Positions 5,249 through 37,935 of a DNA stretch of 64,000 nucleotides are shown piece after piece; position 1 is the first letter of the stretch, and each line of letters begins with the position of its first letter. Source of the DNA: a phage; sequence record PZ019084.1. One strand, written 5' to 3'. The notes under the pieces are model-generated. The model was not told where the DNA came from. It saw only the letters and a program-made list of their open reading frames with translations, and did not search any database. Made by a program: the position numbers and the translations under genes.

Positions 5249-5812
5249 TTACCATTCCAATGCTAGTTTTTTGAGTTGTTTCTGTTCTTTTACATTCTTA
5301 GTCACTTCTTTCAAAAAATCATCCGTGACTAAACCTTTTAGTTCTTTTAATACTAAAGGAAGTTTTCCATTTTTAGCAAGAATTGATTTATAGTTAATTG
5401 CATCATTTGTATTAACTTGATACCGCTTAGCAAGTAACTTAATAATCAATACTTCAGTAGAATCTTCGACCAGTTTTGCCCATTTACCATATCTTTTACC
5501 CCGAGGAACAGCAGCCATCAGATAATTAAAATGGGCTTCATCGCTTAAACCTGATCCAATTAAATTCATCGCATATACAGCTGGCATGCATTCAGGAAAT
5601 TGTGATAATGCATTCTCAACCATGTATTTTGAATAATCTTTTTGAGCAATAGAGCATTTAGTTTTATTATTAATAGCTCCAATTATTTCAAAAAATTCAT
5701 TTTCAGCTTTTTCCTTAAAAGAATCAGCAGCAGATTGGACAGCTGTCCAATCTTTTGAATACCAAGCAACTTGATGCTCGTTTAATTGAATATCATCTTC
5801 AAATAAGCTCAT
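5249..5812 (-). CDS. 62: clamp loader small subunit
   Basis: 187 aa, position between regA and 44. Confidence 0.9.
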
Positions 5813-5813
5813 A

Positions 5814-6773
5814 TCACTTCCACTGCATTTCGCATGCTAATTGAATGAAAAGATATGCTAAATGTAATTCCGTATTAGCCGCAATTCCATGATACTGGTT
5901 ATTTTCACCAACAATTTCATACATACGAATAATACTTTGCGGAGTTACGCGTGTATAGATTTCTTCGGCAAGTTTACCTACGAACCACGAATAATCAGCT
6001 GCATATTTTGGTGCTAAAGCTCTGAGCTGTTTAACATCTTTATTTTTGAGAGATTCAAGAACATCATCAATAGCACCACGATCGTTAGTAACCAGTGATA
6101 AAATACCAGCATCCAAAACACCTTTAGATGAATAACTATCGAGCTCACCAATAGTTTTACGAAAATCAGGAAAATTCTTTTTAACCAAAGCTGCTACAAC
6201 TTTCATATCAGCTATAGCAATTCCTTCATGCTTGCAGATTTCAGTTAATCGACGAATCATCTGCTTCATCATTTCAATTTTATCTTCATCAGTCGGTTGA
6301 CCGAACGTAATAACTCGGCAGCGTGACTGAAGCGGTTTAATAATACCATCAATATTGTTAGCAGTAATAATAATACTACAGTTTGAACTATAAGCTTCCA
6401 TAAAGGAACGAAGATGTCGCTGAGACTCTGCTAACCCTGAGCGGTCAAATTCATCAATAACGATTACTTTTTGACGACCATCAAATGAAGCTGCACTAGC
6501 AAAATTAGTCAAAGGACCACGAACGAAATCAATTTTACAGTCTGATCCATTCACAAACATCATATCAGCATTTACATCATGACACAATGCTTTTGCTACA
6601 GTCGTTTTACCTGTTCCTGGAGAAGGAGAATGAAGAATAATATGTGGAATCTTACCTTTACTTGTAATAGATTTAAAGGTTTCTTTATCAAAGGCGGGAA
6701 GAATACATTCATCGATAGTAGATGGACGATATTTCTGTTCAAGAATGTGTTCTTTTTCATTTACAGTAATCAT
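5814..6773 (-). CDS. 44: clamp loader ATPase subunit
   Basis: Walker A GTGKTT; start set at MITVNEK (319 aa, T4 length); the track ORF extends 5 codons further to 6788. Confidence 0.93.
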
Positions 6774-6804
6774 AATTTCCTCATTCAAGTTTTAGTGTAA
6801 ATTT

Positions 6805-6820
6805 AAGGGCCGAAGCCCTT
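6805..6820 (-). terminator. CUUCGG tetraloop hairpin
   Basis: aagggc-cgaa-gccctt between genes 45 and 44. Confidence 0.5.
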
Positions 6821-6822
6821 TA

Positions 6823-7509
6823 TTAAAAGTCGTGGGTAGAATCAGCTTCAAGAGCTACTACATAATTCGCATGTTCACCTTCAAATTTAGCAGCGCCTTG
6901 TTTACCTTTTGCCCAGAGCAGAAGTTTATAATTTCCTGGTTGCATTTTCATATTTGCCATATTGATAATGAAATTAAATGTATTTTCACCATCATAATCA
7001 CCAAGAGTCAAAGAATATTTAACACGGGTCAAAGCAGAATCTTCCACTTTATTAAAACCGTTAATTACAATTTTACCTTCTTTTACTGTGATAGCAATTG
7101 TATCAATCTGCAGACCACGAGATACACGCAACAGCTGTTGAAGGTCTTCAGCTTTAATTTCAGTAACAACAGATGCTACCGGGAATGGAATTGGTTTATT
7201 AGGAGCAACTACTGTGCTCGGATCAGCTGCTGGCCAAAAAATTGTTGAACGGGCATCAGCAATTTTAATATTTCCATCTTCTGACTGGGAAATTTCTGCA
7301 TCGTCATTAACTAAGGACAGAATACCGAGAAAACCGTTCAAATCGTAAATCGCTACATCAAAATCAATAGTGTCAGAAATATTTGCTTCCGCATAAGTTG
7401 TACCATTAACTGCGCGAGTCATAATAAATTGACCGGATTTAAGCATAATACCGGAGTTAATAGTAGCGAAATTTTTAAGCAGAGCAGTAGTATCTTTAGA
7501 CAGTTTCAT
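6823..7509 (-). CDS. 45: sliding clamp / late transcription coactivator
   Basis: 228 aa, matches T4 gp45. Confidence 0.95.
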   Translation of the reverse strand: MKLSKDTTALLKNFATINSGIMLKSGQFIMTRAVNGTTYAEANISDTIDFDVAIYDLNGFLGILSLVNDDAEISQSEDGNIKIADARSTIFWPAADPSTVVAPNKPIPFPVASVVTEIKAEDLQQLLRVSRGLQIDTIAITVKEGKIVINGFNKVEDSALTRVKYSLTLGDYDGENTFNFIINMANMKMQPGNYKLLLWAKGKQGAAKFEGEHANYVVALEADSTHDF

Positions 7510-7564
7510 GTAATTTCCTTCAATTCAAATGAGATTTAATTTTATAACTAATTTAATAAAGCAA

Positions 7565-7954
7565 TTAACGATTAAAATCAGCAGCAATTGTTTCCGCAAC
7601 AATTTGAGCAGCAACAATTAGACGTTCATCTGCATTACCGCAATAATCATCTTCAAGGCGTTCACCACATGAAGTCATAATAAATTTAGCACCAGCATTT
7701 AGAGATTCTGCCGTATGTTTGCGCATCAGTTCAATCCATTTATCACTCACTTCACGATCGATGGCTTCATAATACGCATGACGAGCAGGTGCAGATTTAA
7801 TTTTGCTCTGAATAACTTCCATTGCGTTATCAGAAAGAGACAAAACCCATGCTCGACGAATTTTATTTTGGTTTTGTGGATTTGAATCAGAACGCACGTG
7901 TTTTGGCTGAATATCTTTTACATCAACAGTATAATTCACAGTAATTTTAGTCAT
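7565..7954 (-). CDS. rpbA: RNA polymerase binding protein RpbA
   Basis: 129 aa, position between 45 and 45.2. Confidence 0.8.
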
Positions 7955-7963
7955 AATACACCT

Positions 7964-8155
7964 TTAGTCATAATAATCAGTAACAGTCCAAGCTTCATTC
8001 CTGTTGGACATTATTTTCGTATATTCTGATTTAAATGCATTCTTAAGCATAGATTCAGTAACTATATGCTCTTCATTAGAAAAATTATTTCTCAGAATAT
8101 ATCGTTTTATTTCAGGAATAGTTAATAGATGCTGTCCAGTTGAATATTCTGCCAC
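7964..8155 (-). CDS. 45.2: hypothetical protein 45.2 (63 aa)
   Basis: Small ORF in the T4 45.2 position. Confidence 0.55.
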   Translation of the reverse strand: MAEYSTGQHLLTIPEIKRYILRNNFSNEEHIVTESMLKNAFKSEYTKIMSNRNEAWTVTDYYD

Positions 8156-8165
8156 AGTTCCTCCG

Positions 8166-8173
8166 TATAAATA
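8166..8173 (+). promoter_or_regulatory. T4 late promoter TATAAATA upstream of the HNH endonuclease gene
   Basis: Exact TATAAATA 34 nt upstream of ATG 8207; AAGGA RBS follows. Confidence 0.6.
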
Positions 8174-8206
8174 TGTTTATCACTCGCTGTATCAAAAGGA
8201 TATGTT

Positions 8207-8923
8207 ATGAATTATAAACTAATTTATGAAAAGTTAATCTCTAATGCTAAATCTCGAAAACTTGATTGCTATACTGAATCTCATCACATTATACCACGCT
8301 GTTTAAATGGTAGCGATGACGCTTCAAACTTAGTAGATTTAACACCAGAAGAGCACTATGTAGCTCATCAACTTTTAGTAAAAATTTATCCTTCTGAACC
8401 AAAATTAGTCTATGCTGCTAACATGATGACAGTTTCTACGAAATACGCTAAACGTAACAATAAAACTTTCGGCTGGATTCGTCGTAAACTCTGGGAAATA
8501 GAAAAGAATAAAGAGTTCTCCCAAGAGACACGAAAGAAAATGTCCGACGCAGTAGCTAATAAAGCAAGACTAACTTGTCCACATTGCGGTAAGTCTGGAT
8601 TAAGCGGGAATATGAATCGATGGCATTTTGATAACTGCCCAAATCACCCCAATCCTAAAGTTAGACCGCCAATGTCTAAAGAACACAGAAATAATATCTC
8701 AAACGGGCTTAAAGCAATCGTTCTTGAAGAAACATCATGCGAATTCTGCGGAATGATAGGCAAGAAATGCGTTATCGCAGCGCATAGAAATTTCTGCAAG
8801 AAAAATCCAAATGGACGCAAGAAAACTGAAAAGACTGGTACTTGCGTCCATTGTGGTAAAGTTACCACGTTCGGAAATTTATCAAGATGGCATAATGATA
8901 ATTGTAAATATAAACCTAGCTAA
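8207..8923 (+). CDS. freestanding HNH homing endonuclease with three C-terminal zinc-finger-like repeats
   Basis: 238 aa; HNH motif ESHHIIPRCLNGSDDASNLVDLTPEEHYVAH; three CxxC...(W)HxDNC units; opposite strand to all neighbours; 3' end overlaps the 3' end of gene 46 by 8 nt. Confidence 0.85.
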   Translation: MNYKLIYEKLISNAKSRKLDCYTESHHIIPRCLNGSDDASNLVDLTPEEHYVAHQLLVKIYPSEPKLVYAANMMTVSTKYAKRNNKTFGWIRRKLWEIEKNKEFSQETRKKMSDAVANKARLTCPHCGKSGLSGNMNRWHFDNCPNHPNPKVRPPMSKEHRNNISNGLKAIVLEETSCEFCGMIGKKCVIAAHRNFCKKNPNGRKKTEKTGTCVHCGKVTTFGNLSRWHNDNCKYKPS

Positions 8924-10604
8924 TCTTAGCTAAACTAAATCTACCAACTTTTTCCATTTGAATGTGCTGACCATATTCCTGTGGGTCATGGTCTTTATGC
9001 GAAATTATGAAGAAGTTGGTATCCTTCAAACCATCTAAAATTTTAGCCACATTTTTAATACCTTCAGCATCAAATGCACCGTCATACACTTCATCAAGAA
9101 ATAAACAACTTATTTTAACACCTGAAACTTTTTCAGCAATATCACGCCAAGTAAATAAAAGAGCAATATCAATTCGTGCTTTTTCACCTTGACTAAATGA
9201 AGCATAACTAAAATCTTCACGACCACGGGATTTAATTGTCTCATTAAATTCTTCATCTAATGTAAACACATAATCCGCTTCCATTATTTTAAGATAATGA
9301 TTAATCTGCTTATTAAATAATGGAATGTACTTTTTAATAATAGCACCTTTAATACCAGAATCTTTGAGCATATCAGTCAAAATTCCTCTATGGTATTTTT
9401 CCATTACTAAATTAGTTTTTGTCTTAACAATTTTATCAAGTTCTTCTTGAAGCAGTGCTATTTCATCAGCATGGTCAATAAACTCAGATGATGCTTTTTC
9501 TATAGCTGCTTTAACTTTTTTAGCTTTATCTACAGTCGTGATTAGAGATTGCTTTTTATTGCGAATATCATTCGCCAACGTCTGCTGGGTTTTAATATTA
9601 TCTCGGTATTCATCAACGAGAACTTTTAAATTATCACGATGTGTTGAAAGCTGTTCAAACGAATGCGTGCATTCAGAAACTTTATCTTTAATTTTAGAAA
9701 CAACTTTATCACCGGAACTTAATTGTGACAAACAGGTTGGACATAATCCACCTTCGTGATACATATTAATGACTTTATTATACGAGTCAATTTTTGATTT
9801 AATTAAAAATGCTTCTTGACCGATTTTATTAAATGCATCAGTCGGGTCTTCATCCAAAACAATATTAACTAATCTTTCATTAGCTTCTTCTATTTCCGAT
9901 TTTAGCGTTCTAGCTTCTTTTGCCAAATCATCATACATATTCTGCAGACGAGTAAGGTTATCACCGGTTAATTTTTTCTGACGTTCAACGTTATCATTAT
10001 ATATTTTAATTTGTTGGATAATACTATCTTTTTTAACATCAAGCACTTGGTTTTGTGAATTTAATTCACGTATTAGTGCTTTATTAAGCTTATCCATTTC
10101 AGCTAATGTTCCTACCTCGAGTAGGTCTTCGACAAGCTTTCTTCTTGCAGGAGTGGATAAGCCCATAAAAGGGGTATATCCAGCCGTGCCGAGTACGACG
10201 ATCTGTTTGAAACTGGCGTATGACATTCCGATAAGCTGTTCAAATTCTGCTTGGAAATCTTTACTGCTGGCAGATTCATTAAGACGTGTACCGTTAACGG
10301 TGATTTCGAAAACGTTTGGTTTTTGTCCTCTTTTGATATAGTACTTTTTCTCATCATATTCCATCCACAGTTCAACTAAAAGTTCTTTCTTATTTGTACT
10401 GTTTATTAATTGGCCTTTCTTTACATCACGAAATGGCTTGCCAAAAAGCCCAAATGTGATGGCTTCTAACATAGTAGACTTACCACCGCCATTTCGCCCA
10501 GTAATAAGAGTTTTTTGAACCTTATCTAGTTGAATGTCAATAGGATTTCCACCTACTGACATTATATTTTGATACCTAACTCGGTTTAGTTTAAAATTCT
10601 TCAC
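8916..10604 (-). CDS. 46: recombination endonuclease subunit (Rad50/SbcC-like ATPase)
   Basis: 562 aa; Walker A TGRNGGGKST, D-loop CLFLDEV, central coiled coil. Confidence 0.93.
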   Translation of the reverse strand: MKNFKLNRVRYQNIMSVGGNPIDIQLDKVQKTLITGRNGGGKSTMLEAITFGLFGKPFRDVKKGQLINSTNKKELLVELWMEYDEKKYYIKRGQKPNVFEITVNGTRLNESASSKDFQAEFEQLIGMSYASFKQIVVLGTAGYTPFMGLSTPARRKLVEDLLEVGTLAEMDKLNKALIRELNSQNQVLDVKKDSIIQQIKIYNDNVERQKKLTGDNLTRLQNMYDDLAKEARTLKSEIEEANERLVNIVLDEDPTDAFNKIGQEAFLIKSKIDSYNKVINMYHEGGLCPTCLSQLSSGDKVVSKIKDKVSECTHSFEQLSTHRDNLKVLVDEYRDNIKTQQTLANDIRNKKQSLITTVDKAKKVKAAIEKASSEFIDHADEIALLQEELDKIVKTKTNLVMEKYHRGILTDMLKDSGIKGAIIKKYIPLFNKQINHYLKIMEADYVFTLDEEFNETIKSRGREDFSYASFSQGEKARIDIALLFTWRDIAEKVSGVKISCLFLDEVYDGAFDAEGIKNVAKILDGLKDTNFFIISHKDHDPQEYGQHIQMEKVGRFSLAKIS

Positions 10605-10816: not shown

Positions 10817-11051
10817 CCTTAATACAAGATACAGCCATATCTTGTAATGATTTAGGTGTGTCATTATCTAAAATGTTGAAGTTAAAAGATACAGCCCAGT
10901 CAGTGCAGACCGTGACCTTTTTAATACAATTATCTTCAACCTCTAGCGGTTCAAACCAATATTCAATAATTTCTTTATGCCCAATATCATCTTTTACTTC
11001 GCATTCAAAATGCTGACTCATCATAACATTTTTAAATTCATCAAAAGTCAT
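10788..11051 (-). CDS. hypothetical protein (87 aa)
   Basis: Small ORF coupled to the gene 47 stop. Confidence 0.5.
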   Translation of the reverse strand: MTFDEFKNVMMSQHFECEVKDDIGHKEIIEYWFEPLEVEDNCIKKVTVCTDWAVSFNFNILDNDTPKSLQDMAVSCIKDAYCEVFDI

Positions 11052-12067
11052 TGTGTTGCCTCTACATATAACTGATTTGCATATTGAATAAGTGCTTCGC
11101 GGTCAGAATCAGTGATGTCTGGAATTGTATTAATGTATTCTTCCATCAACGTCTGAAGAGATTGAACTTCAACTTCTTCACTATCATCTGACTCGATAGA
11201 GTTATCAATCTTTGACACAACTCGTAATGAATGCACAACTTTTTCTAGTTCAGATTCGAACTTCGTTAGATTTTTGTCTACCTCAGTTACTATAACACGT
11301 ACTGATAGATTTGTAAAATCTTTATAGTCAATTTTTCCCTTAAATGGATACTGAATTCGACGGTGCCAAGTAGTGTTGTTTGGAATAAATTCCATTCGTT
11401 CTGTTTCTGTATCAAACATCCAGAACCCGCGAGGGTCATTCTCGTCACCTGCAGTTAGTGTCCATGGTGTCCCAATATATCTGACGTTAGCAGCCTCAGA
11501 GATAGTATGGAAGTGACCAGACCACACCTCTTTATAAGTCTTAAGGAAATCAGGTTCAAGACCGTGAGATTTCATTCCTTTATAAAAATAAAATCCATTC
11601 AGTTCCCAGTGACCAACACAAAAAGAAGCAGATGAAGTTTTGATGTGTTCAAGAATTTCACCAGTATTTTCTTCGCACATCCAAGGAATTAAATCAATCA
11701 AACATCCGTCAAAATCTACTGTAGTAGGCTTATCATATACTTTAACATTAGGATATTTAGCCAAAAGCTCAGTAGAAGCATTTGGAGTTAAAGTATTTTT
11801 AAAGTGCATATCATGGTTTCCTACAACAGTATGTAGGGTAATACCAGCATCATCAAGCATTTGAACTATTTCACGAGCGAACTCCATAGTTTTATGCGTG
11901 ATTGCTTTTCGCACATCAAAAATATCGCCGTATTGAATCCATGTAGTAATTCCGTTTTTCTTAGAATATTCTATTGCTTGTTTAATTCCATCCAACTGAA
12001 TGGATTGAACCCACTCATCATCGGCTTTAACACCTAAATGCCAATCACCTAAATTTAAAATTTTCAT
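11048..12067 (-). CDS. 47: recombination endonuclease subunit (Mre11/SbcD-like phosphoesterase)
   Basis: 339 aa; calcineurin-like motifs GDWHLG, GDIFD, GNHD. Confidence 0.93.
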   Translation of the reverse strand: MKILNLGDWHLGVKADDEWVQSIQLDGIKQAIEYSKKNGITTWIQYGDIFDVRKAITHKTMEFAREIVQMLDDAGITLHTVVGNHDMHFKNTLTPNASTELLAKYPNVKVYDKPTTVDFDGCLIDLIPWMCEENTGEILEHIKTSSASFCVGHWELNGFYFYKGMKSHGLEPDFLKTYKEVWSGHFHTISEAANVRYIGTPWTLTAGDENDPRGFWMFDTETERMEFIPNNTTWHRRIQYPFKGKIDYKDFTNLSVRVIVTEVDKNLTKFESELEKVVHSLRVVSKIDNSIESDDSEEVEVQSLQTLMEEYINTIPDITDSDREALIQYANQLYVEATQ

Positions 12068-12204
12068 ATATCAAGAACCGTCATTGAAATGCAAAATAAA
12101 ATTATTGAAATAAATCCGTCCGGAGTGCTAAAGAACCCAATCCAACATGCTCTAGTGAATAGATAAAATGCGAGAAAAAGTATCACATATCCAAGAAATA
12201 TCAT
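12064..12204 (-). CDS. small hydrophobic protein (46 aa)
   Basis: Below the ORF-track size cut-off; MIFLGYVILFLAFYLFTRACWIGFF...; stop overlaps gene 47 ATG (ATGA). Confidence 0.4.
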   Translation of the reverse strand: MIFLGYVILFLAFYLFTRACWIGFFSTPDGFISIILFCISMTVLDI

Positions 12205-12227
12205 TATATCAAACTCCGTATAAAGCT

Positions 12228-14940: not shown

Positions 14941-15018
14941 TTTCACCTCTTAGCTCAATTCATAGATCTATTATATCATAATATTTGAAGATCTATCTTA
15001 AAGCATAGAGGATATCAG

Positions 15019-24375: not shown

Positions 24376-24408
24376 CATTATACCACATCCTTGTGGCGAA
24401 GTAAACTA
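24376..24408 (-). promoter_or_regulatory. T4-type early promoter
   Basis: GTTTAC (24406-24401), 18-nt spacer, perfect TATAAT (24382-24377). Confidence 0.55.
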
Positions 24409-26777: not shown

Positions 26778-26801
26778 ATTATACCATCCTTGGTATAAAG
26801 C
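26778..26801 (-). promoter_or_regulatory. possible T4 middle (MotA-dependent) promoter
   Basis: Minus strand GCTTTA MotA-box-like element 12 nt upstream of a perfect TATAAT. Confidence 0.35.
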
Positions 26802-33142: not shown

Positions 33143-33355
33143 TCATTTTTGTCCTGTATTTACTTTATGCCGATGCACGGCCTTAACTTTATCAAGGTAT
33201 TTTTCAAAATTTCGCAATCTAGTATAGTCTGCCGGAGATTGGTTGAGTGATACTTCTCGACGCAAAGCTGAAATGATATTTCCAACTTCCCTACGAATTT
33301 CATCTAATTGAAGAACAGTAAGATTGCGAAGTTGCTTTTCAGTTAATTGTAGCAT
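33143..33355 (-). CDS. hypothetical protein (70 aa)
   Basis: Small basic ORF. Confidence 0.45.
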
Positions 33356-36387: not shown

Positions 36388-36427
36388 ATAGAAAAATTAT
36401 ACCACAGTCAAGAGGAAAAGTAAACAG
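36388..36427 (-). promoter_or_regulatory. T4-type early promoter
   Basis: GTTTAC (36425-36420). Confidence 0.5.
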
Positions 36428-36972: not shown

Positions 36973-37186
36973 ATTCTACTTCCTCACCAGTACATAAATC
37001 ATATTCAACTAAACGAATAGGTTCATGAATGCCATATCCTTGAACAGAAATTTCTGTCGTAGGATAAATTCCATCAATATCACCCATGGTCCACGCTTCA
37101 TTAAATTGCTGTTCGCCTGAATTACTAAACCACTCGGCGAAAGCATTTAACACATCTTTAGAACCTTCAATAATTATCTTTGCCAT
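36965..37186 (-). CDS. hypothetical protein (73 aa)
   Basis: Small acidic ORF. Confidence 0.45.
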   Translation of the reverse strand: MAKIIIEGSKDVLNAFAEWFSNSGEQQFNEAWTMGDIDGIYPTTEISVQGYGIHEPIRLVEYDLCTGEEVEYD

Positions 37187-37548
37187 TACAAGCTCTCAGT
37201 AAAGGTACGAGCGATAACGTCGCGCTGCTGTTCCGGAGTCAGAGAGTTAAAGCGAACTGCATAACCGGATACACGGATGGTCAGCTGCGGATATTTTTCC
37301 GGATGCTTAACTGCATCTTCCAGAGTTTCACGACGCAGAACGTTAACGTTCAGGTGTTGACCACCTTCAATTTTAACTGTAGGCTGTTGTTCAATTTCAA
37401 TTTCACGGGTGTGCAAACCGTAGAAAATTTCTGGGTCTACAAAAGAGTCCTCTTTAAAAGTTTTAGAGACAATAATTCGTGCCTGAATACCATCTTCAAA
37501 ATAAATAGTACCTTTATGTGTGCCTTCAAGAATTTGATATGCTTTCAT
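37186..37548 (-). CDS. autonomous glycyl-radical cofactor (GrcA/YfiD-like)
   Basis: 120 aa; C-terminal half matches E. coli GrcA as remembered, with glycyl-radical motif RVSGYAVRF; coding DNA 37190-37390 is GC-rich unlike its surroundings. Confidence 0.85.
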
Positions 37549-37554
37549 ATAACC

Positions 37555-37935
37555 TCAATTAGAAAATAAATTTATCCAAGACTGTTCTTTAATTAAAAAT
37601 GGCTCAGAATCATATGCCATTAAACTTTGGGTGATTAGTCCTTTAAAAGGCCCATCAATAAATTCCATGGTAAAATATGGAATTTTATTCATTAATCTTG
37701 CATTAGGAGCAGTGCACAAAACTCTGCATCCTTTGAATACGCCTTTTTGTAATTTGTATTGCTTAGGATAAAATTCGCTCAAGACGTTGTTATTTGCCAA
37801 AATTTCAAAATGATTCACCAATTTATTTTTAATAGTTTTTGGCGAAAAATAAAGATATTCGAAAAGTTGCGTATCTGTCATCATTGCATTCCAATTACGA
37901 AAAACTGTGGACGAGTAATACCACCAATGCAACAT
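37555..37935 (-). CDS. hypothetical protein (126 aa)
   Basis: Minus-strand ORF. Confidence 0.5.
   Translation of the reverse strand: MLHWWYYSSTVFRNWNAMMTDTQLFEYLYFSPKTIKNKLVNHFEILANNNVLSEFYPKQYKLQKGVFKGCRVLCTAPNARLMNKIPYFTMEFIDGPFKGLITQSLMAYDSEPFLIKEQSWINLFSN

Follow-up and report, generated by a model that had tools for sequence, protein, structure and literature searches.

A probable free-standing Mob-type HNH homing endonuclease gene linked to a divergent gene 46 terminus in a T-even phage

The window analysed here, a 64,000-nt stretch of phage DNA (PZ019084.1), is occupied from about position 1 to 52,000 by a block of minus-strand genes, inside which a single substantial plus-strand ORF is found at 8207-8923. 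This ORF starts with ATG, ends with the TAA at 8921-8923 and encodes 238 amino acids. Its minus-strand neighbours are the replication and recombination genes 44, 45 (6823-7509), rpbA (7565-7954), 45.2 (7964-8155), 46 (8916-10604), and 47 (11048-12067), and it runs tail-to-tail into gene 46, with which it shares the 8 nt at 8916-8923; both the ORF and this overlap had been described in an earlier note on this DNA. The only other plus-strand ORFs of at least 120 amino acids in the block, at 6832-7248 and 37180-37569, look like antisense shadows, as they overlap gene 45 and the minus-strand ORF 37186-37548, respectively. On the basis of its similarity to Mob and HNH proteins, and of annotated copies that are 99-100% identical, the ORF at 8207-8923 has been assigned as a putative free-standing Mob-type HNH homing endonuclease gene.

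The 45.2-46 junction was aligned among relatives, as the earlier note had proposed, and the left boundary of the element was located at the 45.2 start codon. On the left, the start of 45.2 (8153-8155, minus strand) is altered to GTG and followed by an extra Ala codon, while T4 has ATG; no fixed differences between phages carrying the gene and those with an empty site exist from 5500 to 8145, and the first ones appear at this start codon. On the right, gp46 ends in ...GRFSLAKIS in the window versus ...GRFTVMV in T4, and the sequence encoding these last residues arrived with the endonuclease element. No intrinsic terminator was found 3' of the endonuclease gene, and a scan for sigma-70 consensus promoters (3 sites versus 6.4 expected) was uninformative.

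The encoded protein is predicted to consist of an N-terminal HNH nuclease domain, followed by short helices, the first of which gives a weak NUMOD3-like match, and by three CCHC zinc fingers. The HNH (beta-beta-alpha-metal) catalytic motif, with the string ESHHIIPRCLNGSDDASNLVDLTPEEHYVAH, spans residues 24-54 (8276-8368, plus strand) and is delimited by conservation and by an AlphaFold model (pLDDT 94.2). It is intact: no variation occurs among 71 homologues at E24, H26, H27, P30, G35, N41, L45, H50, or H54, and the model shows strands at 24-27 and 42-45 and a helix at 47-60. The weak match to Pfam NUMOD3 (PF07460) covers residues 103-115 (E 0.14), and its 12.6 bits fall short of the cut-off of 20.4; this family is present in many more distant homologues, and here the zinc fingers come after that region instead.

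Finger 1 (C124, C127, H140, C144; 8576-8638) is predicted to form strands 121-123 and 130-132 and helix 133-143, finger 2 (C178, C181, H193, C197; 8738-8797) strands 175-177 and 184-186 and helix 187-196, and finger 3 (C213, C216, H229, C233; 8843-8905) strands 210-212 and 219-221 and helix 222-232, all of them on the plus strand. Fingers 1 and 3 end in WHxDNC and finger 2 in HRNFC, in agreement with the HNH motif and the three zinc-finger-like repeats (CxxC...HxxxC) pointed out previously. The twelve zinc ligands and the catalytic residues are all retained across five genera, and the four ligands of finger 3 are invariant in the 71-sequence alignment. These beta-beta-alpha CCHC fingers probably bind DNA. 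When the model was compared with the PDB by Foldseek, the best matches were CTCF and other finger arrays, with E values of 0.011 or worse and nothing at E ≤0.001, this extended multi-domain model (pTM 0.59) being ill-suited to a whole-chain fold search. A phmmer search of PDB sequences gave only matches with E 0.17 or worse. None of the Pfam zinc-finger families was above its cut-off; the finger half and two homologues give sub-threshold zinc-ribbon or finger matches.

The affiliation to the Mob family is clear. The profile search that had been suggested as a check for HNH-family similarity returned phrog_655 ("homing endonuclease") at 8.6e-69, and BLASTP matched the ~120 N-terminal residues to T4 MobB (44% over 126 aa, E 6e-30), MobE (43% over 120 aa, E 2e-29), MobD (53% over 75 aa, E 9e-24), and MobC (37% over 142 aa, E 1e-22). 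Foldseek aligned the model with 85 predicted structures of viral proteins at E ≤0.001, including those of T4 MobB (4.9e-11) and MobC (5.5e-9). The Pfam HNH model remained below threshold (16.9 bits versus a cut-off of 21.4), so a check relying on Pfam only would have appeared negative, and NCBIfam provided only a far-sub-threshold IscB HNH match. Membership of the Seg family was rejected, as no GIY-YIG match was obtained in Pfam, PHROGs, or NCBIfam, and tblastn with T4 SegA, SegB, and SegC likewise found nothing in the window. From the original assignment to a homing endonuclease of mob/seg type, the mob (HNH) half is therefore kept and the seg (GIY-YIG) half is dropped. Among the Tequatrovirus copies compared, pS is 0.12-0.13 and pN 0-0.002, which yields a dN/dS of about 0.01; judged from these values, the protein is under strong purifying selection.

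An exact T4-type late-promoter motif, TATAAATA, is present at 8166-8173 (plus strand), separated from the ATG by 33 nt, which bears out its earlier recognition just upstream of the ORF. T4 late promoters precede the transcription start by about 6-7 nt and depend on gp55 and gp33. Its frequency in the window is at the chance level (13 matches versus 11.2 expected), and this expected count gives an estimated probability of only about 0.5% that a particular start codon has the motif within 60 nt in the correct orientation. It is also found exactly at the equivalent position in the Mosigvirus and Dhakavirus orthologues; Cronuts has CTAAATA there and phT4A TTAAATA. According to the T4 late-promoter consensus, TATAAATA would be the late promoter of the endonuclease gene; no other driver is plausible, given that all neighbouring genes run antisense to it. 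A Shine-Dalgarno sequence, AAGGA, can be read at 8196-8200 (plus strand), 6 nt before the ATG, and the orthologues from Dhakavirus and Mosigvirus keep AAGGAT. Folding of the late transcript predicted no hairpin that would mask this site in the way known from I-TevI and Aeh1 mobE (z = -0.17).

The conserved fingers, together with a late transcript that would proceed antisense into gene 46 with no terminator found, might also suggest a DNA-binding regulator with a vestigial HNH domain, involved for instance in the late shutdown of early/middle 46-45 transcription; I-TevI doubles as an autorepressor (PMC2988022). Nevertheless, the invariance of the HNH catalytic residues in the 71 homologues is at odds with a vestigial domain, nothing ties the protein to regulation, and the sporadic distribution described below speaks against a regulator that is needed, which makes this explanation extremely improbable.

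In T4 (NC_000866), the start of 45.2 (33246) and the stop of gene 46 (33302) are separated by a 55-bp spacer that contains no orthologue, in agreement with the earlier note. Among the Tequatrovirus records of the phage collection, 60 carry the gene and 444 have an empty site (88% empty). The empty sites are highly uniform, 409 of the 444 being at least 99% identical over 111 nt, and the 60-nt stretch AGCATAATCTCTTATAAATTAAACCATTACAGTAAATCGACCAACTTTCTTCATTTGAAG is invariant in six aligned empty-site genomes. The carriers belong to several Tequatrovirus species on mosaic backgrounds. Moreover, orthologues occur tail-to-tail with gene 46, at the same site and in the same orientation, in Dhakavirus (64% identity), Mosigvirus (58%), Pseudotevenvirus (47%), and Slopekvirus (43%). 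The insertion had been proposed to be mobile and lineage-specific; its mobility is supported by the sporadic distribution (60 versus 444) and by the linked flanking haplotype, both of which, as far as sequence comparison goes, fit a mobile element, whereas the presence of the gene in several species and in four other genera contradicts lineage specificity. Between genera, the divergence of the endonuclease roughly tracks that of gp46, a pattern compatible both with repeated invasion and with a long vertical residence.

The gene travels with a divergent haplotype of the 3'-terminal ~220 nt of gene 46 (8916-9136, minus strand), a candidate co-conversion tract and self-immunity region. In a sample of 5 carriers and 6 non-carriers, the two classes are 22.5% divergent at 8937-9136, versus 1.6% within the carriers, while beyond 9137 both classes show about 2% divergence. 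This gene 46 stretch contains 20 fixed differences, and none is found at 9137-9886. In the left flank and in the distal right flank, between-class divergence (2.5% and 2.0%, respectively, in the same sample) equals that within classes, and carriers are interspersed with non-carriers. Flanks were taken from separate left and right multi-genome alignments; a pairwise MAFFT alignment with T4 misplaced the insertion gap. In the whole collection, exactly 60 records contain the carrier haplotype (at least 95% identity), and in 59 it is contiguous with the 3' end of the endonuclease gene, so that collection-wide linkage of gene and haplotype is indicated by matching counts (60, 60, and 59). An origin of the carrier tract by import from another carrier genus was rejected, as it is 56-68% identical to its counterparts there, no closer than the remainder of gene 46.

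Such a short linked tract amid unlinked mosaic flanks is, from the alignments, the footprint of homing or co-conversion, with some ambiguity left by a third divergent haplotype of the gene 46 3' end, which occurs in RB14 and Sf22 without the endonuclease gene and indicates that this stretch may be hypervariable for reasons other than the endonuclease. We infer that the target in empty-site phages is likely to comprise the last codons of gene 46 and the 46/45.2 spacer. A target at the 45.2-46 junction, as first envisaged, is thus retained on the gene 46 side and in the spacer, but not in 45.2.

The adjacency to gene 46 would be incidental if the protein were a nuclease with a different job, such as competitor exclusion, anti-defence, or DNA-end processing. 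HNH nucleases act in diverse processes, DNA processing would be compatible with late expression too, and a T-even Seg endonuclease has been reported to aid immune evasion (PMC13096335). However, all the nearest relatives are putative homing endonucleases of the Mob type, the gene occupies one and the same intergenic site throughout five genera, it is missing from most close relatives, and a co-conversion-like tract is predicted by homing and not by a housekeeping role. In addition, excluding a competitor's markers would be the same mechanism seen from another angle. A separate function of this kind is accordingly considered very unlikely.

Taking these data together, the ORF is very probably a functional free-standing T4 Mob (HNH) homing endonuclease gene inserted between 45.2 and 46, which most likely copies itself into relatives without it. 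Late in infection, the gene would be transcribed from its own gp55-type promoter TATAAATA. During co-infection with an empty-site relative, the protein, presumably bound to DNA through its fingers, would nick or cleave DNA close to the strongly conserved gene 46 3' end or the 46/45.2 spacer, and the break would be repaired by phage recombination with the gene-carrying genome as the template. The recipient would thereby acquire the gene together with about 200 nt of neighbouring gene 46 sequence. Immunity of the carrier is proposed to come from destruction of the site by the insertion and by the ~22%-divergent terminus of gene 46. Late expression would be a sensible timing, because the predicted target is in gene 46, whose product is needed for break repair.

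The DNA of the insertion may also carry signals used by its neighbours. An extended -10 element, TGGTATAAT, lies inside the HNH-coding region (8288-8296, minus strand) and is a candidate promoter for 45.2-rpbA-45. The orthologues from Tequatrovirus, Dhakavirus, and Mosigvirus share the 16-nt sequence CATCACATTATACCAC without a single change, even though they are close to saturation at synonymous sites, and among the genera compared TGGTATAAT occurs only in these three Tevenvirinae genera. Several other minus-strand matches to TGNTATAAT are found in the window between listed ORFs, upstream of genes. The empty spacer of T4 has a MotA-type match, TGCTTTA-N11-TATAAT, that is removed by the insertion. 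A weak candidate for a MotA-type middle promoter, TGCTTTA-N13-TATTAT, is located inside the ORF (8691-8716, minus strand); it is present in the window and in RB32 and absent from the Dhakavirus and Mosigvirus orthologues, and the pattern reaches 42 matches in the window versus 24 expected by chance.

These signals bear on the possibility of a former homing endonuclease that no longer homes and is retained because the host has come to depend on its DNA. The 3' end of the gene encodes the gp46 C terminus and its body may carry a promoter for 45.2-rpbA-45, so a simple deletion would be harmful. The 8-nt overlap with gene 46, the altered gp46 tail, the loss of the MotA-type match of the empty spacer combined with the antisense TGGTATAAT kept in three genera, and the endonuclease divergence that tracks gp46 between genera are all in line with this, and embedded host promoters have been discussed as favouring the retention of seg and mob genes (PMC2988022). 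Nonetheless, the whole-protein dN/dS of about 0.01 shows that selection acts on the protein itself and is not confined to DNA signals embedded in the gene. Moreover, the catalytic residues and the twelve zinc ligands are kept in five genera, 88% of the Tequatrovirus records do well with an empty site, and recent movement is indicated by the close association of the gene with a short flanking tract in otherwise mosaic surroundings. Retention without homing is consequently regarded as quite unlikely, and an active homing endonuclease remains the preferred reading.

A more elaborate and rather doubtful extension of this preferred reading is that the three-finger array reads the target, making the protein a "zinc-finger nuclease" with an HNH domain; that its specificity and the 3' terminus of the Rad50-like gene 46 have diverged together in the five genera; and that TGGTATAAT, in the codons of the catalytic HHIIP, has taken over the transcription of 45.2-rpbA-45.

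The gene itself is already known. It has been present in public annotation since the RB32 genome (2006), and it belongs to the ordinary class of T-even free-standing homing endonucleases. The 2006 annotation describes RB32ORF054w (ABI94878.1) as a putative endonuclease "similar to mobB"; its counterparts in RefSeq are named "homing endonuclease", e.g., YP_010069620.1 (vB_EcoM-G28) and YP_009197396.1 (slur07). All of them are the same gene, 99.6% identical, on the opposite strand between 45.2 and 46 and overlapping gene 46. A literature search on the gene or its site found no specific paper, and gp46 is not mentioned by Barth et al. 2023. The locus is of interest as a well-defined system, with a near-invariant empty site and a sharply bounded ~200-nt linked tract in an essential recombination gene. 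Furthermore, the orthologues at one site in five genera make the co-evolution of endonuclease and target comparable, and no family in the searched copy of Pfam captures the conserved module of three fingers.

Among the known systems, the closest parallel is T4 MobE, encoded between nrdA and nrdB, which shares a homologous HNH region, is free-standing, and adjoins a conserved gene with co-conversion-type polymorphisms. MobE nicks the neighbouring conserved nrdB site-specifically, promoting its own inheritance (Wilson and Edgell 2009, PMC2790892), and it is the sole Mob comparator here with experimental mobility and nicking. Contrary to MobE, which is promoterless, co-transcribed with nrdA and on the same strand, the window gene is antisense and has its own late-promoter motif. 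No similarity to the annotated T4 MobE (141 aa) was found past residue 115, which leaves the three-finger half without a counterpart in that protein, and the target is nrdB for MobE and, as predicted, gene 46 for the window gene.

With T4 MobB, MobC, and MobD, the window protein has in common the N-terminal ~75-140 aa, with MNY..IY..L and (T)E.HHIIP..GG.DD..NLV.LT..EH..AH, and the predicted folds of MobB and MobC match. In contrast, the C-terminal halves are unrelated, BLASTP giving no significant match beyond about residue 135. These three genes are located at a-gt/a-gt.2, nrdG/nrdD, and nrdC.11/mobD.1, respectively, on the same strand as their neighbours, unlike the window gene, and none of them has a homologue in the window.

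The combination of a small nuclease domain with zinc/DNA-binding modules is also seen in I-TevIII from phage RB3 (HNH plus zinc finger) and in I-TevI (GIY-YIG plus a linker zinc finger). Both are intron-encoded, whereas the window gene is free-standing, and I-TevI has a different catalytic fold. In I-TevIII the zinc finger is N-terminal and the HNH domain C-terminal, the reverse of the order in the window protein. The same architecture as in the window, an HNH domain followed by three CCHC fingers in 236-239 aa, is exhibited by the orthologues from Dhakavirus 04086, Mosigvirus 348Ecol098PP, Pseudotevenvirus Cronuts, and Slopekvirus phT4A, which also have a TA(T/A)AATA-like motif upstream and are 43-64% identical in protein sequence.

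The endonuclease gene is an ORF of the plus strand (8207..8923; ATG start, 238 aa) and, among ORFs of at least 120 aa, the sole credible plus-strand gene in a minus-strand block that extends from ~1 to 52,000. Its neighbours are T4-type replication/recombination genes of the minus strand: gene 44 (5814-6788 in the mechanical ORF list), gene 45 (6823-7509), rpbA (7565-7954), 45.2 (7964-8155), gene 46 (8916-10604), and gene 47 (11048-12067). The mechanical ORF of gene 44 starts at a TTG and yields 324 aa, against 319 aa (960 nt) in the annotations of T4 and its relatives, so translation probably begins at an internal ATG (MITVNEKE...). The endonuclease ATG is preceded on the plus strand by the late-promoter motif TATAAATA (8166-8173) and by AAGGA (8196-8200), and the TAA stop (8921-8923) lies within the final codons of gene 46, with which the ORF overlaps by 8 nt. 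The ORF, its late-promoter motif, and the 8-nt overlap, together with an HNH motif and three fingers, had been described in the earlier note from the sequence alone and were confirmed, and the comparisons below support its interpretation of the gene as a homing endonuclease.

The HNH string covers residues 24-54, and the three fingers are formed by C124/C127/H140/C144, C178/C181/H193/C197, and C213/C216/H229/C233. Although the curated Pfam models alone remain below threshold (HNH, 16.9 bits for a cut-off of 21.4; NUMOD3, E 0.14), the profile check advised in that note returned clear matches to phrog_655 "homing endonuclease" (E 8.6e-69) and to T4 MobB (E 6e-30, 44% over 126 aa), MobE (E 2e-29, 43% over 120 aa), MobD (E 9e-24, 53% over 75 aa), and MobC (E 1e-22, 37% over 142 aa). 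By these phage-specific and pairwise comparisons, the predicted Mob/HNH assignment is unambiguous, the likeness to the T4 Mob proteins being limited to the N-terminal ~120 aa. A search of a large protein collection yielded 2299 relatives at E <=1e-5, and 71 of these were aligned, the alignment also serving as the AlphaFold2 input. Residues E24, H26, H27, P30, G35, N41, H50, and H54 are invariant in it, as are the finger-3 ligands C213, C216, H229, and C233. In the resulting model, which was called confident (mean pLDDT 94.2, pTM 0.59), the HNH region forms a beta-beta-alpha unit (strands 24-27 and 42-45, helix 47-60). There are also four helices and a beta-beta-alpha unit for each of the three fingers, and one more helix (158-170) separates fingers 1 and 2. 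Compared with predicted viral structures, the model matches 85 proteins at E <=0.001, among them T4 MobB (4.9e-11), T4 MobC (5.5e-9), and numerous "Mob-like HNH homing endonucleases".

No gene is found at this site in T4 (NC_000866), in line with the earlier note; a spacer of 55 bp separates the start of 45.2 (33246) from the stop of gene 46 (33302). Copies with >=95% protein identity are present in 60 records of the phage collection. The T4-type empty junction (111 nt) occurs in 444 records, of which 409 match at >=99% identity, so about 12% of Tequatrovirus-type records are occupied. Among the carriers, which are spread over several ICTV species, are RB32, G28, slur07, Aplg8, fFiEco06, Ozark, teqhad, and PhiZZ30. 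Another record with the locus (98.6% DNA identity; protein 100% identical) is PV654520.1, a 142-kb "Pseudomonas phage vB_PSGBLB0006" with P. aeruginosa ATCC 9027 as host, which suggests a mislabelled or contaminated record, that is, a Tequatrovirus sequence under a Pseudomonas name. Beyond this genus, four others have orthologues with this architecture at the corresponding position, flanked by the 45.2 equivalent and by gene 46, each running opposite to its neighbours and meeting gene 46 tail-to-tail: Dhakavirus 04086 (64% protein identity, gp46 69% identical to that of the window; gene unannotated in the record), Mosigvirus 348Ecol098PP (58% and 82%), Pseudotevenvirus Cronuts (47% and 45%), and Slopekvirus phT4A (43% and 45%). 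The HNH residues and 12/12 finger ligands are kept across them.

The flanks of five carriers (the window, RB32, SYGD1, G28, and slur07) were aligned with those of six non-carriers (T4, BP32, HY01, RB14, PYps10T, and Sf22). Across these genomes, no fixed difference between the classes occurs in the left flank (5500 to 8145) or at 9137 to 9886. The first fixed differences coincide exactly with the start codon of 45.2 (GTG followed by an extra Ala codon in carriers, ATG in non-carriers), and 20 fall within the 3'-terminal ~200 nt of gene 46 (8937-9136). Divergence within carriers, within non-carriers, and between classes is 2.7%, 2.4%, and 2.5% in the left flank and 1.8%, 2.2%, and 2.0% in the distal right flank, but 1.6%, 13.9%, and 22.5% in the 200-nt tract. 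In both unlinked regions the classes are interleaved, slur07 being nearest to T4 and the window to SYGD1 and BP32. The carrier-type tract occurs at >=95% identity in exactly 60 records collection-wide and in none at 90-95%, the next matches being ~80% or lower among those listed; in 59 records it is contiguous with the 3' end of the endonuclease gene. These counts, together with the mosaic flanks, argue that the gene moves together with a short piece of gene 46. Such a linked tract is the pattern expected of break-initiated gene conversion, in which a resistant target region would be co-converted. Import of the tract from one of the other genera with the gene was considered and rejected, as the tract resembles none of them more closely than the remainder of gene 46 does.

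This reading calls for some caution, as non-carriers themselves have two tract haplotypes, a T4 type and an RB14/Sf22 type, ~24% apart (47-49/200 nt). The latter is ~23-25% from both the carrier and the T4 types and accompanies an empty 46/45.2 junction; it could be a resistant allele, a remnant left by a former carrier, or unrelated hypervariability. In rpbA, substitutions cluster densely in RB32 alone (CATGACCATGTGCCATAAGAACC vs CACCACATGAAGTCATAATAAAT in all others aligned; ~7665-7690 of the window, alignment columns ~2168-2192), which looks like a short local replacement.

Homing endonucleases usually exploit highly conserved sequence. A 60-nt stretch with 20 fixed differences is the longest one that is invariant in 6/6 non-carriers yet disrupted in carriers; it covers the spacer and the final ~13 codons of gene 46, whose terminal ~43 nt are 88-93% conserved even in phages of Acinetobacter, Enterobacter, Citrobacter, and Klebsiella. 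This supports a candidate target at the 45.2-46 junction, where the earlier note had tentatively placed it, though on the side of gene 46 and not of 45.2, because the 45.2 coding sequence lacks linked differences. The plus strand of the empty T4 spacer holds TATAAATT, 7/8 of the late-promoter motif, immediately before the gene 46 stop (T4 33,284-33,304; 8285-8305 of the T4 locus extract, L001).

A decaying relic, as in the case of T4 mobA or T4 I-TevIII, is strongly opposed by the low dN/dS: Tequatrovirus copies show synonymous differences of 12-13% and non-synonymous ones of 0-0.2% (dN/dS ~0.01), and the ratio between the Dhakavirus and Mosigvirus copies is ~0.2. Judged from sequence comparison, this is almost certainly a functional gene for a free-standing HNH homing endonuclease of the Mob type, and gene 46 shows a clear footprint that resembles co-conversion.

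Promoters of downstream genes are often embedded in seg/mob ORFs, favouring their retention (PMC2988022), and a host promoter inside this ORF can be hypothesized. On the minus strand of the empty T4 spacer, a MotA-type match (TGCTTTA-N11-TATAAT) closely precedes the ribosome-binding site of 45.2; the insertion abolishes this match. The antisense of codons H26-H27-I28-I29-P30 reads TGGTATAAT (8296-8288, minus strand), a perfect extended -10 directed at 45.2 and a candidate promoter element; the Tequatrovirus, Dhakavirus, and Mosigvirus copies share the 16-nt CATCACATTATACCAC without a single difference, even though synonymous sites between them are near saturation (pS ~0.73). Matches to the extended -10 TGNTATAAT are enriched in the window (12 observed, 6.8 expected), and five on the minus strand between listed ORFs, upstream of genes (12203-12211, 14970-14978, 24377-24385, 26778-26786, and 36396-36404), are probably real early or middle promoters. 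The ORF also contains a minus-strand MotA-type match (8716-8691) in Tequatrovirus only, a pattern common by chance (42 window matches vs 24 expected).

No other Mob/Seg-type endonuclease gene was detectable by tblastn in the window (1-64000): T4 MobB, MobC, MobD, I-TevII, SegA, SegB, and SegC found no homologue besides this ORF. The equivalent T4 stretch (~25-88 kb) holds mobB, mobC, I-TevII, mobD, segB, and segC, so the source phage is poor in homing endonucleases over this stretch. In its closest relatives, SYGD1 and G28, another homing endonuclease gene is annotated (855 bp, minus strand; 6121-6975 in each locus extract, L004 and L007) just upstream of gene 46; beyond it, 46.1 is kept in G28 and not listed for SYGD1. 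The window has no such gene there (~10604), indicating that insertion at one end of gene 46 is independent of insertion at the other.

The gene is already annotated publicly (RB32ORF054w in RB32; "homing endonuclease" in RefSeq) and would not surprise a T4 specialist; RB32 holds two mob-like HNH genes by the count of Petrov et al. 2010 (PMC2993671), and the literature search found no paper on this one. As far as we found, the CCHC module with its three fingers, the gene's strict linkage to the 200-nt gene 46 tract, the site conserved over five genera, and the possible embedded antisense promoter had no earlier description, and they leave its category, a Mob-type free-standing homing endonuclease gene, unchanged.

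Because all surrounding genes are antisense, read-through from neighbours cannot express the gene, and the predicted late promoter is the only candidate driver. Its motif TATAAATA is no commoner in the window than chance (13 observed, 11.2 expected), so its weight comes from placement, which by our estimate would arise by chance (<=60 nt from a start codon, right strand) at ~0.5% of starts, and from recurrence at orthologous loci, being exact upstream of the Tequatrovirus, Mosigvirus, and Dhakavirus copies, with CTAAATA in Cronuts and TTAAATA in phT4A as counterparts. The predicted late 5' UTR has no structure above chance (z = -0.17). A search 3' of the gene found no terminator, so late transcripts, if made, would extend antisense into gene 46. 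This arrangement differs from that of T4 mobE, which has no promoter and is transcribed together with nrdA (PMC2790892), whereas the gene described here is antisense with its own predicted late promoter. It also differs from T4 segD, the other opposite-strand case, which lacks a recognisable promoter of its own (PMC2988022), while this gene is preceded by TATAAATA.
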